64,000 nt of DNA from Eledone cirrhosa (lineage: Eukaryota): assembly GCA_964016885.1 (NCBI GenBank), contig OZ024765.1:10416001-10480000 (forward strand), written 5' to 3'. The position numbers were made by a program, and so were the translations under genes. Shown in pieces: positions 4,301 through 62,545 of this stretch (positions within the stretch are counted from its first letter, which is position 1; each line of letters opens with the position of its first letter). The notes under the pieces were generated by a model. The model saw only the letters and a list, made by a program, of their open reading frames with translations, did no database searches and had not been told where the DNA came from.

Positions 4301-5888
4301 ATGTCATGACAAAAGGCACCCAGTCCACACTGTAAAGTGGTTGTTTAGGTGTCACAAGAAAAAGCACCCAATCCACACTGTAAAGTGGTCGTTTAGGTGT
4401 CACGACAAAAGGCACCCAGTACACACTGTAAAGTGGTTGTTTAGGTGTCACGACAAAAGGCACCCAGTACACACTGTAAAGTGATCGTTTAGGTGTCACG
4501 ACAAAAGGCACCCAGTCCACACTGTAAAGTGGTTGTTTAGGTGTCACAAGAAAAAGCACCCAGTCCACACTGTAAAGTGGTCGTTTAGGTGTCACGACAA
4601 AAGGCACCCAGTACACACTGTAAAGTGGTTGTTTAGGTGTCACGACAAAAGGCACCCAGTACACACTGTAAAGTGATCGTTTAGGTGTCATGTCAAAGGC
4701 ACCCAGTACACACTGTAAAGTGGTTGTTTAGGTGTCATGACAAAAGGCACCCAGTACACACTGTAAAGTGATCGTTTAGGTGTCACAACAAAAGGCACCC
4801 AGTACACACTGTAAAGTGGTTGTTTAGGTGTCACGACAAAAGGCACCCAATCCACACTGTAAAGTGGTTGTTTAGGTGTCACGACAAAAGGCACCCAGTC
4901 CACACTGTAAAGTGGTTGTTTAGGTGTCATGACAAAAGGCACCCAGTCCACACTGTAAAGTGGTTGTTTAGGTGTCACGACAAAAGGCACCCAGTCCACA
5001 CTGTAAAGTGGTTGTTTAGGTGTCACGACAAAAGGCACCCAGTCCACACTGTAAAGTGGTTGTTTAGGTGTCACGACAAAAGGCACCCAGTCCACACTGT
5101 AAAGTGGTTGTTTAGGTGTCACGACAAAAGGCACCCAGTCCACACTGTAAAGTGGTTGTTTAGGTGTCACGACAAAAGGCACCCAATCCACACTGTAAAG
5201 TGGTTGTTTAGGTGTCATGACAAAAGGCACCCAGTCCACACTGTAAAGTGGTTGTTTAGGTGTCACGACAAAAGGCACCCAGTCCACACTGTAAAGTGGT
5301 TGTTTAGGTGTCATGACAAAAGGCACCCAGTCCACACTGTTAAGTGATCATTTAGGTGTCACGACAAAAGGCACCCAGTCCACACTGTTAAGTGATCGTT
5401 TAGGTGTCACGACAAAAGGCACCCAGTCCACACTGTTAAGTGATCGTTTAGGTGTCACGACAAAAGGCACCCAGTCCACACTGTTAAGTGATCGTTTAGG
5501 TGTCACGACAAAAGGCACCCAGTCCACACTGTTAAGTGATCGTTTAGGTGTCACGACAAAAAGCACCCAGTCCACACTGTAAAGTGGTCGTTTAGGTGTC
5601 ACGACAAAAGGCACCCAGTACACACTGTAAAGTGGTCGTTTAGGTGTCACGACAAAAGGCACCCAGTACACACTGTAAAGTGATCGTTTAGGTGTCACGA
5701 CAAAAAGCACCCAGCACTCACTGTAAATGAGACTGGCGTTAGGAAGGGCACCCAGCTGTAGAAACCAAGCCAAAATCAGTTCTGCACGAGCAAGACATGG
5801 TCACCTGACCTGGCATTGCTCACAACAGGATAAACTTGTCTAACCGATACTAGCGTGGAAAAATGATGTTAAGCGATGATGATGATTA
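4301..5888 (+). repeat. 48-bp minisatellite (about 30 units) running into an RTE LINE 3' end
   Basis: Unit gtgtcacgacaaaaggcacccagtccacactgtaaagtggttgtttag. After about 5728 it continues as gttaggaagggca...tagcgtggaaaa...gatgatgat. Confidence 0.95.
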
Positions 5889-5977
5889 TATATATATACG
5901 GAAAACACAACAAACTATGAGGTTCAATGAAGATATTTATTAGTTTTTTTTCACACTTAATATAGTAGGCATAGTCT

Positions 5978-6009
5978 TAACGTCGTTTCGGACACTAGTC
6001 TTTCATCAG
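5978..6009 (-). ncRNA. Minimal hammerhead-ribozyme-like motif (Penelope/retrozyme type), degenerate
   Basis: The minus strand reads CTGATGA-a-agac-tagt-gtcc-GAAA-cgacg-TTA. Its flanks match the copies at 52301, 63057 and 63594. Confidence 0.45.
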
Positions 6010-6429
6010 AATATAGAATGAGAAATTAAAGAAGAAATAAAAAGTTATCAGAAAGTGAGTAGAAGCAGAAATGAAGAAAAAAATGTCTTTACAAAAAAAA
6101 ACAAAAAAAAACAGTTCTGTTCATTCTGCCATTTCTTGGTGTTAGTGTCTAGTTTATTCCATCATTGAAATAATGGTAATTCCAGTAGCTAGCTGAGAAA
6201 GAATCACATAAAGTTACTGATAGCGAATTATTCATTCTCAGTCCAGACAGCATACAATAGATAGAGATGATGGTATACTGGTATATGGTAGCGGTTGCTA
6301 ACACCTGGTTTATAGTCAGCTACTGGTGTGTGTGTGTGTGTGTGTGGGCAGAGAGAGGGTTTGCATATGTAAGTATGTGTGTGTGTGTGAATGGGGAGTG
6401 GGTTGCATACATAAATATTTGTAGTGTGG

Positions 6430-6764
6430 TGTATGTATGTATGTATATAATTGTGTATGCATGCATGTATGTATGTATGTGCATCTATATGTATGTATGC
6501 CACCCCCACGTGTTTGTGTGTATATATATATATATGTGTATGTGCATATATATGTGTGTGTATGTATATGCATATATATATATTGTATGTATGCATGTGC
6601 ATATATATATATATATATATATTGTAAGTATGCATGTGCATATATATATATATATTATATGTATGTATGTGCATATATATATATATATATTGTAAGTATG
6701 TATGTGCATATATATATATATTGTAAGTATGCATGTGCATATATATATATATTATATGTATGTA

Positions 6765-6809
<45 letters not shown>

Positions 6810-7045
6810 TGTGCATATATATATATATATATATGTATGCATGTGCATATATATATATATATATGTATGCATGTGCATATATATATATATATATGTATGC
6901 ATGTGCATATATATATATATATGTATGCATGTGCATATATATATATATATATATGTATGCATGTGCATATATATATATATATATTGTAAGTATGCATGTG
7001 CATATATATATATATTATATGTATGTATGTGCATATATATATATT
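6430..7045. repeat. Compound (TA)n/TGCA microsatellite
   Basis: Direct reading. Confidence 0.95.
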
Positions 7046-59758: not shown

Positions 59759-60020
59759 CCGTTTTACGGCCATTCTTCCACGCTAGCATGGGTTAGACGG
59801 GTTGTCCTGTTGTGGGCAGTGCCCGGTCGGCTGACCTTGTCTTGCTCATACGGGAACTGATTCTGGCTTGATCTCTACAGCTGGATGCCCTTCCTAACAC
59901 CCAGCTCATTTACAGTGAGTGCTGGGTGCTTTTTGGCCGTGGCACCTCCACGACCACCTTGCAGTGGGGGTTGTGGGGGCATATTGTCTATATGCTTCAG
60001 CTTCAGCTTGTACCCGTGGG
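59722..60020 (-). mobile_element. RTE LINE 3' UTR copy
   Basis: Reverse complement of 33135-33340-like sequence with a (GAT)n tail. Confidence 0.85.
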
Positions 60021-60404
60021 GGGTCGGATACTCTACAATATTTCTGATAAAAGACACTGCTTATGACTTTTAAATAATTTTATAAATAATCAAGAATTTT
60101 GAGGGATTTAGTAATACAACTAACTTTCTCATCATTAACCTTTTAGCATTTACATTACTCTATATTTACTAATGTATTTTCACGGTAAATACTTTATCTC
60201 ACATAATTGTCTCATATAACGTTGAATCTATGGGATTTTGATATAATTTATTTTGAGAACAATACCTTAACATAAGTATGGGATTTAATAATATTACTAA
60301 CTCTCTGATTATTATGCTGGTGTTTGGAACAAGTTAAATTTTCTTACAGAAGATTATGAAGGAAAGATTTTAAAAATACACATAAATACTTAAACAGCTT
60401 AATA

Positions 60405-60694
60405 CAGTCATGCGCAAACTGTGACCCATGTGTCTTTCTGAATGATAAGCCTACTTGCAAAATTGCCTTGAATTTTTTAGTAATATGATGAACCACAACC
60501 ATTGCCAGATTTACTGTTGTGCCTAGGTGTGCTTAAACACAGGGCCCCGTTGGCCAGAGGAAAGCCCATCTTCCTGCCAAAAGATGTTTTTACAATGGGG
60601 CCTCATAACTTATCTAGCATAGGGCCTTGTCCTAAATCCGGCACTGACCACAATGTATGTGGCCCACTGCTCATGAAAAGGTTGCCCATGCCTG
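60405..60694. mobile_element. hAT MITE (same ends as 63118-63259) with a nested insertion
   Basis: CAGTCATGCGCAAACT ... AGGTTGCCCATGCCTG with a degraded TSD gcttaata/gctgagta. Confidence 0.7.
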
Positions 60695-60803
60695 GCTGAG
60701 TATCATAGCATCATGGTGGAAGTTGTATGAAGTGGGTTGGGTCAATGTTTTTGTTATTATTGTTCACTAATTCTTCTGTTTCTTCTCTTATCATCACCAC
60801 CAG

Positions 60804-60929
60804 GCATTCAACAATATCTATTTGAAAATGGTAGGATTGACAATATTTTCACAGACATGTATTATGAAAAGTTCACTGAATGTCTCAATGAAATTTTGAT
60901 ACGATATCAACCCAAGATCAATGGAATGG
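60804..60929 (+). CDS. ZMYM4: Coding exon 12 (GIQQYLFENGRIDNIFTDMYY...)
   Basis: caccag acceptor, G|gtaagt donor. It continues LCL-GIQQYL from exon 11. Confidence 0.94.
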
Positions 60930-61659
60930 GTAAGTATCGGAGTTCCGTCATCATTTAACATCCATTCTCCACATTAGCAAGGGTTAGTCAAGTCATATCA
61001 GAACATGTCGTAACATAGCTGGAGTCTTTGACCTCTCAGTTGAACCAGGGGCCTACAGCCCATTTACTGGCATTCCTATATTTCACAGAACCCACTGAGT
61101 ATGTTGGCACCAGTTGGATGGATCGTCATAGAAGAACATGTAACAACATAGCCAGAGCCATTTGCCTCTCAGATAAACCAGGGGCTTGCATCTTGTCTGC
61201 ATACTTTACATACTCAAATATAAGCCTCCTCCCCAATTTTATGTCTGAGAAATGGGCAAAAATCCAAACCCCATTTACAAGCCGAGGCAGCTAATCAACT
61301 CATTGTTTAGATGGCGTATCTAAGCCCCTCTTTTGTTTTAAAAATGTACCTAAAATATTACAACTAGAATTACGACGTAGATGATAATAAAAAAAATATG
61401 GTGTTTTAACTTTATAATTTTCACCTGACATTCATAGTTTAACCCTTTAGCATTTACATTACTCTATATATACTATTGTATTTGTGTGGTAAAGGCTTAT
61501 CTTACATGATTATCTCACATAATATCGAATCGATGAGATTTTGATGTTATTTATTTTGAGAACAATACCTTAAAGTTGGTATGAGTGGCAGGTTACGGTT
61601 GATTTGAACAGAATGAGGTGAGAGAATTCTGGCCAGTTTGAATTATTGTAACTCTAAAC

Positions 61660-62545
61660 GCATATCTAAATAGAGTGGACTGGGTGCTTTTTATTGTGGC
61701 TCTAAAACATATCTAATAGGGTGGACTGGGTGCTTTTTATTGTGGCTCTAAAACACATATCTAATAGAGTGGACTGGGTGCTTTTTATTGTGGCTCTAAA
61801 ACATATCTAATAGAGTGGACTGGGTGCTTTTTATTGTGGCTCTAAAACATATCTAATAGGGTGGACTGGGTGCTTTTTATTGTGGCTCTAAAACACATAT
61901 CTAATAGAGTGGACTGGGTGCTTTTTATTGTGGCTCTAAAACATATCTAATAGGGTGGACTGGGTGCTTTTTATTGTGGCTCTAAAACACATATCTAATA
62001 GAGTGGACTGGGTGCTTTTTATTGTGGCTCTAAAACACATATCTAATAGAGTGGACTGGGTGCTTTTTATTGTGGCTCTAAAACATATCTAATAGGGTGG
62101 ACTGGGTGCTTTTTATTGTGGCTCTAAAACATATCTAATAGAGTGGACTGGGTGCTTTTTATTGTGGCTCTAAAACACATATCTAATAGAGTGGACTGGG
62201 TGCTTTTTATTGTGGCTCTAAAACATATCTAATAGGGTGGACTGGGTGCTTTTTATTGTGGCTCTAAAATGCATATCTTACAGGGTGGACTAGGTGCTTT
62301 TTAGTCAGCTATAGCACAACCATCTACAAGATGGACTTGGTACTTTCCCATTGTGGCACTAAAACGACTACTTTACAGGGTGGATTGAGTGCTTTTTATT
62401 GTGGCTCTAAAACACATATCTAACAGGGTGAATTGGGTGCTTTTTATTGTAGTTGTAATGTGACTACCTTACAGGGTGGACTGGGTGCTTTTTATTGCAG
62501 ATTTAAAACAACTATTTTACAGGGTGGACTGGGTGCTTTTTAGTC
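61660..62545 (-). repeat. 46-48-bp minisatellite of the same RTE 3' UTR motif, inverted orientation
   Basis: Unit agagtggactgggtgctttttattgtggctctaaaacatatctaat. Its reverse complement contains aaaaagcacccagtccactct. Confidence 0.93.

Follow-up and report, generated by a model that had tools for sequence, protein, structure and literature searches.

The window analyzed here is a stretch of 64,000 nucleotides of Eledone cirrhosa (assembly GCA_964016885.1, contig OZ024765.1, positions 10,416,001 to 10,480,000) that forms part of C26, a 23.8-Mb chromosome of a 3.0-Gb assembly in which the chromosomes range from 22 to 443 Mb; positions below are those of the window unless a chromosome is named. 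It contains four minisatellite arrays (A1 to A4; Table 1) whose unit is homologous to part of the 3' end that a long interspersed nuclear element (LINE) and a short interspersed nuclear element (SINE) have in common. Unexpanded copies of both elements are found in the same window, and A2 to A4 sit between exon-like stretches of a plus-strand gene. The comparisons described below show that the elements carry a short tandem ready-made, that growth of this tandem follows insertion and occurs at the DNA level, and that the resulting arrays are most frequent on the small chromosomes of this genome.

A 30-nt core of the unit was matched 140 times in the window at up to three mismatches, while 100 shuffles gave 0 matches, and a position matrix counted 30, 68, 64, and 19 cores in A1, A2, A3, and A4, respectively. 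Tandem Repeats Finder (TRF) delimited A2 as 65 copies of 48 bp at 23234-26373, beyond which degenerate units continue to ~26670-26690, and A4 as 19 copies of 46-48 bp on the minus strand at 61643-62542. The mean distance between units was 0.06-0.10 within arrays and 0.21-0.37 between arrays, and the nearest neighbor of each unit belonged to its own array in 171/171 cases. In a tree built from 102 distinct units of 46-50 bp, A2, A3, and A4 each formed one side of a supported branch, and the four array labels together required only the minimum of 3 changes. Compared to the 48-bp unit of LINE subfamily A, the consensuses of A1, A2, and A4 had 4, 11, and 17 mismatches, respectively; that of A3 had 2/49 mismatches to a hybrid unit of subfamily B. 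Both A1 and A3 continue into the element tail and its (GAT)n. These results bear out what the original prediction had claimed for the locus, i.e., that four arrays have one core and a consensus of their own each, that they are independent expansions (their units do not intermix, and the tails of A1 and A3 belong to different subfamilies), that the arrays at 4.3 and 46 kb run into the LINE 3' end and (GAT)n, and that about 9 kb was added at one locus, the combined length of A1 to A4 being 8,906 bp.

Published passages on RTE elements describe a single long open reading frame (ORF) with an apurinic endonuclease and a reverse transcriptase (RT), followed by a short 3' untranslated region (UTR) ending in simple repeats (PMC1291365). 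By its ORF domains and 3' UTR layout, the LINE appears to be of this type. One intact copy has a 1040-aa ORF with endonuclease (PF03372/PF14529), RT (PF00078), and PHD finger, and the 3' UTR measures 275-283 bp from stop codon to (GAT)n in 6/6 intact copies measured. An Atlas search gave only unnamed endonuclease-RT(-PHD) clusters. When the genome was searched with the ORF end at 32.7-33.1 kb, 151,608 first-look candidates were obtained, and several of them have open 1,040-aa frames; in stretches L102-L107, the PHD finger of intact 1,040-aa ORFs was observed after the RT domain, and the tails were <1% diverged. These intact ORFs and little-diverged tails show recent activity of the family.

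This abundant LINE and its partner SINE carry 1.5-4 diverged units as a short 3' tandem. A half unit followed by two cores was found in 22 of the 23 ORF-bearing copies and one core in the remaining copy, and none had more than two cores; the tails of the 22 copies differed from their majority line by a median of 0.8%. The older subfamilies are different in this respect: subfamily B contains two degenerate units plus two cores, and dispersed copies of subfamily A contain 1-6 cores. The SINE has units and 3' tail in common with the LINE and a head with an Rfam tRNA match (34450-34507, 31.2 bits). A tRNA-derived head and a tail common with the LINE are characteristic of a LINE-partner SINE, and it has both. 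The motif is present in SINE tails at 3.0, 3.3, 34.6, 38.2, 41.7, and 54.6 kb. The built-in tandem seed that had been proposed is supported for the 3' end of the LINE and SINE, and the motif was found where it had been placed, with two scoring units in the LINE 3' UTR at 31.9 kb, 1.5 at 33.2 kb, and in the six SINE tails. We also noticed that the last unit of the SINE copy at 41637-41824 is partly deleted, so that the tandem also contracts, and that 2878-3392 is an inverted pair, in which a SINE on the minus strand adjoins a truncated copy on the plus strand, back to back.

Table 1. Arrays and copies of the LINE and SINE in the window.
Feature	Position	Strand	Description
Array A1	4298-5727	+	TRF: 48-bp unit, 29.8 copies
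A1 host copy			5' truncation falls inside a unit
A1 LINE 3' tail, older subfamily A	5728-5886	+	terminates in (GAT)4
Array A2	23234-~26690	+	~70 units of 48 bp, 3' end decaying
A3 host copy, 5' remnant	46010-46070	+	degenerate first units, subfamily B
Array A3	46071-49135	+	TRF: 49-bp unit, 62.7 copies
A3 LINE 3' tail, subfamily B	49136-49287	+	includes (GAT)n
Array A4	61643-62545	-	~19 units of 46-48 bp; most diverged of the four
LINE 3' fragment, unexpanded, subfamily-B-like	31445-32223	+	decayed ORF end, ~2 scoring units plus degenerate ones, (GAT)19
LINE 3' fragment, unexpanded	32670-33350	+	ORF end open, 1.5 units
Truncated LINE 3' end, unexpanded	9570-9835	+	95.7% similar to the 31.9-kb copy
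Truncated LINE 3' end, unexpanded	59722-60019	-	1.5 units, (GAT)12
SINE, unexpanded	34441-34795	+	tRNA-like head, 1.5 units, LINE-derived tail
Further such SINE copy	~2878-3225	-
Further such SINE copy	38053-38399	-
Further such SINE copy	41469-41824	+
Further such SINE copy	54424-54749	+
Fifth array, LINE terminal motif	54800-58530	-	24-bp unit, 3.7 kb, runs into (GAT)n tail

Other parts of the LINE have also been expanded in the window. The unit of the fifth array consists of the LINE terminal motif plus a few flanking bases, and a genome search for a second array of this 24-bp unit found none; the array would thus be a one-off expansion from another part of the LINE. Two ATC-rich arrays, at 18963-22586 (21-bp period, 3.6 kb) and 59070-59647 (irregular, 0.6 kb), are found 45-75 bp downstream of LINE 3' ends on the minus strand, oriented as the (GAT)n tail is, and are likely expanded (GAT)n tails.

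Growth of the Arrays After Insertion

Unit numbers and unit sequences show that growth follows insertion and takes place at the DNA level, i.e., that it is the seed that moves and, as a rule, not the array. In A3, both ends of a single subfamily-B copy are retained, namely its degenerate first units and its tail. The A3 consensus matches the hybrid of that subfamily's last two units more closely (the 2 mismatches given above) than it does the plain penultimate unit (5 mismatches), which fits misalignment of two adjacent units. Another subfamily-B copy (L237, at least 29 units) had expanded the preceding interval, unlike A3. In A1, one private base is found in 28/28 units and another in 25/28, and both are found in 0/16 dispersed units. 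Exact blocks are repeated within arrays as well: 267 bp at a shift of 1013 bp in A2 and 171 bp at a shift of 725 bp in A3. Furthermore, four copies of one SINE insertion that have the same flanks on both sides (G000:C25:15.993-16.002 Mb) contain 2, 3, 4, and 11 cores, respectively, and in the longest of them a 3-unit block is doubled. That these duplicates differ in unit number demonstrates that the number changes at the DNA level.

When the genome was searched with each window array and the best 40 candidates were scored per search, the best match elsewhere was 89% for A1, 87% for A2, 88-89% for A3, and 78% for A4. An age test based on identical pairs of units was informative for A1, A2, and A4. 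The tail divergences of 4.1% and 4.6% are lower bounds, as the comparison set was chosen by similarity. A special secondary structure of the unit was considered as a general cause and rejected: of four two-unit stretches, only one gave a better fold than its shuffles did (z of -2.6; the others +1.3, -1.0, and +1.1).

For A2 and A4, a LINE origin is suggested by homology only, and they likely derive from older relatives of the element. Among the arrays elsewhere that are most like A4, 5/8 run into the LINE tail, and among those like A2, 0/3 do so by blastn. An A2-like linker was found in 4/82 dispersed sampled elements, 3 of the 4 with the first motif of the tail. The ends of elements may decay or be lost later, and arrays like A2 and A4 would then be what is left.

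The gene between whose exons A2 to A4 lie, which we take to be ZMYM/woc-like, is represented by exon-like stretches at 14552-15800, 22792-23130, 41923-42008, 45703-45885, and 62588-62790, with intron boundaries read from the sequence. These stretches include a long acidic frame, a cysteine-rich finger-like exon, a proline-rich exon, and a DUF3504 exon at 62588-62790 (Pfam E 7e-27); for the exon at 22.8 kb, PDB and Pfam searches gave nothing significant. In run X1, which has a different organism label and is ~94% alike here, one contig covers 62519-62964 and the outermost A4 unit adjoins the same exon, which probably makes this an old insertion. Contigs of runs X3 and X4, which may be the assembly's own sample, match 62512-63000 without difference, while run X2 gave only repeat-like matches (a small share) and provides no evidence on this locus. 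None of these comparison runs, which comprise short contigs and RAD reads, spans an array, and with regard to A3 orthology, the contigs from other runs end at a simple repeat at ~45908-45998, before the element.

Array Density and Chromosome Size

A systematic sample of the genome consisted of 113 10-kb stretches placed at round-number positions, the final 34 of which, all on chromosomes of up to 61 Mb, were added after the first 79 had shown the trend. The sample contained 93 elements, called at a threshold that 0/40 shuffled stretches reached. Arrays of at least 4 units numbered 0 in 550 kb of chromosomes of at least 90 Mb, 3 in 340 kb of chromosomes of 37-61 Mb, and 8 in 240 kb of chromosomes of 22-36 Mb. 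Such arrays were found in 6/24 stretches of the smallest class versus 0/55 of the largest (P=5e-4), and 8/36 elements were expanded to this length in the smallest class versus 0/24 in the largest (P=0.017). A genome-wide link between arrays and the RTE 3' end was supported, as 8/11 sampled arrays run into the tail (8/10 if one with its 3' side cut by the stretch end is omitted). Extrapolated roughly from these 11 arrays, the genome would hold ~180,000 elements and ~12,000 arrays of at least 4 units.

Ranked searches, in which the top matches listed were counted without unplaced contigs and the query's own locus, agree with this for two of three families. The share of listed matches on chromosomes of up to 61 Mb was 36/38 for array plus tail versus 15/38 for tail only in the A3 family, 19/38 versus 4/39 in the A1 family, and 29/34 for arrays versus 25/146 for ORF matches in the young family; the share expected from element density is 48%. 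Among the best-scoring A3-type arrays on small chromosomes, 3/36 lie in the outer tenth, while the intact-ORF matches there favor it (13/25), both being post hoc counts. Mean GC was 0.351 in the smallest chromosomes and 0.370 in the largest. Unrelated, non-RTE complex minisatellites followed the same trend, their number per 100 kb being 2.0, 2.0, 6.2, and 14.2 from the largest to the smallest class (P=7e-7, ~sevenfold).

The claim that four expansions in 64 kb are striking was not supported. At the sampled rate, 1.3 arrays of at least 10 units are expected in a 64-kb window on a 22-36-Mb chromosome, and the Poisson probability of four or more is 0.046 (0.17 for arrays of at least 4 units), so that four arrays are only mildly unusual for a small chromosome, on which unrelated minisatellites are enriched too. 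The crowding in the window is thus an instance of what holds for small chromosomes of this genome in general. The seed is supplied by the element, and the rate of expansion is likely governed by chromosome context.

Other tandem repeats of the window also have dispersed relatives. A 73-bp array (1486-2040) and a 72-bp array (10258-10789) lie within another dispersed repeat and consist of one and the same unit, oppositely oriented; their units match 13 and 14 of the 113 sampled stretches, and 72-bp arrays are also found on C20 and C22 (L077, L079). This repeat is a second mobile seed. Units of 123 bp (30875-31195) and 131 bp (51112-51896) match dispersed sequence in 9 and 8 of the 113 stretches, and C15 and C26 bear arrays of similar sequence with a 120-123-bp unit (L073, L166). 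Six of the 113 stretches (L012, L031, L041, L065, L088, and L182) lie (almost) wholly in long satellites with periods of 33-99 bp that are unrelated to the 48-bp motif, and four of the six are on chromosomes of at least 130 Mb.

Proposed Course of Expansion and Its Alternatives

We consider it probable that the RTE-type LINE and the SINE insert with 1.5-4 units and that single copies subsequently grow where they lie, with the chromosome likely determining the rate. The starting point is the fixed short tandem that intact copies bear. In the second step, as observed for A3 and the SINE arrays, the unit amplified is the hybrid expected from misaligning two adjacent units. Locus-private mutations then come to be carried by many units of an array and multi-unit blocks duplicate, as the private bases and repeated blocks show, giving each locus its own consensus. 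In the fourth step, arrays gather on small chromosomes, as unrelated minisatellites do, probably through higher exchange per megabase there. Lengthening likely proceeds through misaligned exchange or slippage between neighboring units, for which meiotic, sister, or replicative events are all possible.

This reading changes several parts of the original prediction. Of expansion "after or during" insertion, the first half stands, given the duplicates with 2 to 11 cores, and the second is improbable, as no ORF-bearing copy read is expanded. The "mobile minisatellite generator" is mobile as a seed and, as a rule, immobile as an array. In the unit tree, clustering by locus on one side of a branch was recovered for A2, A3, and A4, and not for A1; a LINE origin of all four arrays holds for A1 and A3, which keep the tail, and A2 and A4 are not tied to a particular element end.

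Several observations weigh against growth in place at a chromosome-dependent rate. In the unit tree, A1 units are not on one side of a branch (2 changes), and for A2 and A4 no element end was detected in the stretches checked downstream. The identical-pair test was neutral for A3 (1.0% identical pairs versus 0.7% expected at 5% decay). On the smallest chromosomes, the second batch of sampled stretches yielded 2 arrays in 140 kb versus 6 in 100 kb in the first. The small-chromosome share of A1-family arrays does not exceed the density expectation, and the control for the young family sets mostly SINE arrays against LINE ORFs, with 4 of the 29 arrays coming from one local cluster. Among 57 placed tail-only loci, arrays of at least 5 units numbered 2/18 on chromosomes of up to 61 Mb versus 3/39 on larger ones (P=0.65), with few arrays overall (5/57). 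Long arrays occur on large chromosomes too, with 46 and 64 units on C3 and C5, and both C3 and C4 hold arrays tens of kb long; the motif reaches satellite scale at ~57 kb on C4, at least 42 kb on C3, and ~13 kb on C7, where the ends were read and continuity is deduced from matches. Finally, one pair of giant arrays (C4 and C7) was duplicated whole, flank included.

Arrays might alternatively form mainly at insertion, if RT slipped back on the repeated RNA and laid down many units that then decayed, which we regard as improbable. Slippage could account for the 1-6 cores of dispersed subfamily-A copies, as could several masters, and some young arrays are very uniform, at 1-2% from their own consensus; the neutral pair test for A3 is also compatible with it. 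However, extra units were present in 0/23 ORF-bearing copies, unit number differs among duplicates of one SINE insertion, private variants are common to many units and multi-unit blocks are repeated, and the chromosome bias of arrays is above that of element density in 2/3 families.

It is also unlikely that the chromosome bias stems from retention, element age, or assembly quality, with arrays forming everywhere and being lost, collapsed, or mis-assembled unevenly. The intact young copies are mostly on the four largest chromosomes (106/149 matches listed), so the small ones may hold older copies; moreover, no read set spans an array, and the tail-only loci showed no enrichment. Nevertheless, arrays with young tails, 93-99% like the intact copy, are still mostly on small chromosomes. 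Collapse is evidently not general, given that arrays of tens of kb were assembled on large chromosomes, and neither the ordered blocks of variants nor the intact ends look like assembly noise. The X3 and X4 contigs, which may be from the assembly's own sample, agree with the A4-exon junction without difference.

The giant arrays at G000:C4:11.598-11.656 Mb and C7:71.761-71.774 Mb (L151-L154) have a unit in common, and all 1,291 flank bases compared are 98.2% alike: an inter-chromosomal duplication, after which the arrays came to differ in length. A rare origin of arrays, with finished arrays then being copied to new places through segmental duplication or through retrotransposition of a master that bears one, as in the variable number tandem repeat (VNTR) of SVA, has thus happened at least once elsewhere (C4:11.60 Mb/C7:71.76 Mb), yet it is very unlikely as the general explanation, given that no near-identical copy of any window array was found among the best 40 candidates per search, that units of different arrays do not intermix, that the tails of A1 and A3 come from different subfamilies, and that intact masters are without an array.

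Significance and Comparison with Known Systems

The rate and place at which short duplications become minisatellites or satellites are hard to measure because the starting points differ. Here there is one seed with a known ancestral state, datable by its tail, at ~180,000 extrapolated sites and at all stages between 1.5 units and tens of kb. With so many replicates, the way in which array birth depends on chromosome size, position, and recombination becomes directly testable. If the stuttering-like instability proposed tentatively below is real, well over 100,000 dated copies of one seed, thousands of them grown to between 4 units and tens of kb, would map the birthplaces of minisatellites and satellites. 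The arrays also inflate introns (8.9 kb in the window) and, if polymorphic, would provide locus-specific length markers.

Minisatellites derived from transposons are already known, and the small-chromosome compartment is the more novel part. Unlike VNTRs of the SVA type, which are mobile as arrays, the masters here transmit no array, as 0/23 ORF-bearing copies have more than two cores. We found no description of this repeat or of octopus RTE minisatellites in the literature, nor, in papers from 2020 on, of intronic tandem repeats on small octopus chromosomes, a search whose scope excluded Repbase/Dfam, subscription papers, and supplements, which may already show the 3'-UTR tandem; the passages of the O. 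vulgaris repeat annotation seen mention no satellites (PMC13282606). Octopus RTE LINEs such as RTE-2_OV are described as having a single ~1,100-aa ORF with endonuclease, RT, and zinc finger, a repeat-ended 3' UTR, and recent activity (PMC9115989). The LINE reported here resembles RTE-2_OV in all these respects as far as descriptions can be compared, with no claim of identity. The passages on RTE-2_OV, however, describe a microsatellite-rich 3' UTR of ~600 nt and mention no 48-bp tandem (PMC9115989).

Minisatellites have been derived from Alu, mouse B1 and MaLR, and the 3' region of soybean Gmr9/Ogre (PMC6947457, PMC9659126). As in the present case, the reviewed seeds are short direct repeats within an abundant element, amplified by slippage or unequal crossing-over and then further (PMC6947457, PMC9659126). 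The passages of these reviews on the subject name no RTE element, and here, in contrast to those minisatellites, several subfamilies expand an interval of their own each, and the loci are extrapolated to number on the order of 10,000.

The SINE-derived satellites of squamates (sSat) are closer in form. Their units of 70-290 nt are part of a retroposon, number from few to hundreds, and are subtelomeric, with abundant variants homogeneous between loci, and unequal recombination has been proposed for them in the parts of the account consulted (PMC10702118). The arrays described here are similar in that a part of a retroposon is in tandem at many loci, in the wide range of unit numbers, and in the terminal unit continuing into the element end, which applies to A1 and A3 and not to A2 and A4. 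They differ from sSat in that the 48-bp tandem is ready-made in the master and common to LINE and SINE, in their locus-specific consensuses (the between-array distances given above), and in being non-subtelomeric, as far as the post hoc count of 3/36 in the outer tenth indicates.

With regard to chromosomes, the nearest parallel is the "sequence stuttering" of avian dot chromosomes, i.e., tandem expansions that stay strictly local, span tens to hundreds of bases within introns, and are concentrated on the smallest chromosomes (PMC12954441; bioRxiv 10.1101/2025.10.17.683159, 10.1101/2025.10.14.682431). High recombination per length is proposed as a cause, and the passages seen report GC-rich DNA, copied exon edges, and length variation in populations (PMC12954441). 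The likeness is one of chromosome pattern: local tandem expansions are concentrated on the smallest chromosomes (2.0 to 14.2 per 100 kb), which suggests that repeat instability of small chromosomes is not confined to the GC-rich chromosomes of birds. As GC enrichment is absent, the arrays are not classed as stuttering here. It is possible, and we propose it tentatively, that the small chromosomes of this genome undergo a dot-like stuttering without GC enrichment and away from telomeres, of which the 48-bp tandem of the LINE and SINE is a built-in reporter. In contrast to the avian dot chromosomes, the small chromosomes here measure 22-60 Mb and are not GC-richer (0.35 versus 0.37), the effect is graded and milder, and many of the seeds are mobile elements.

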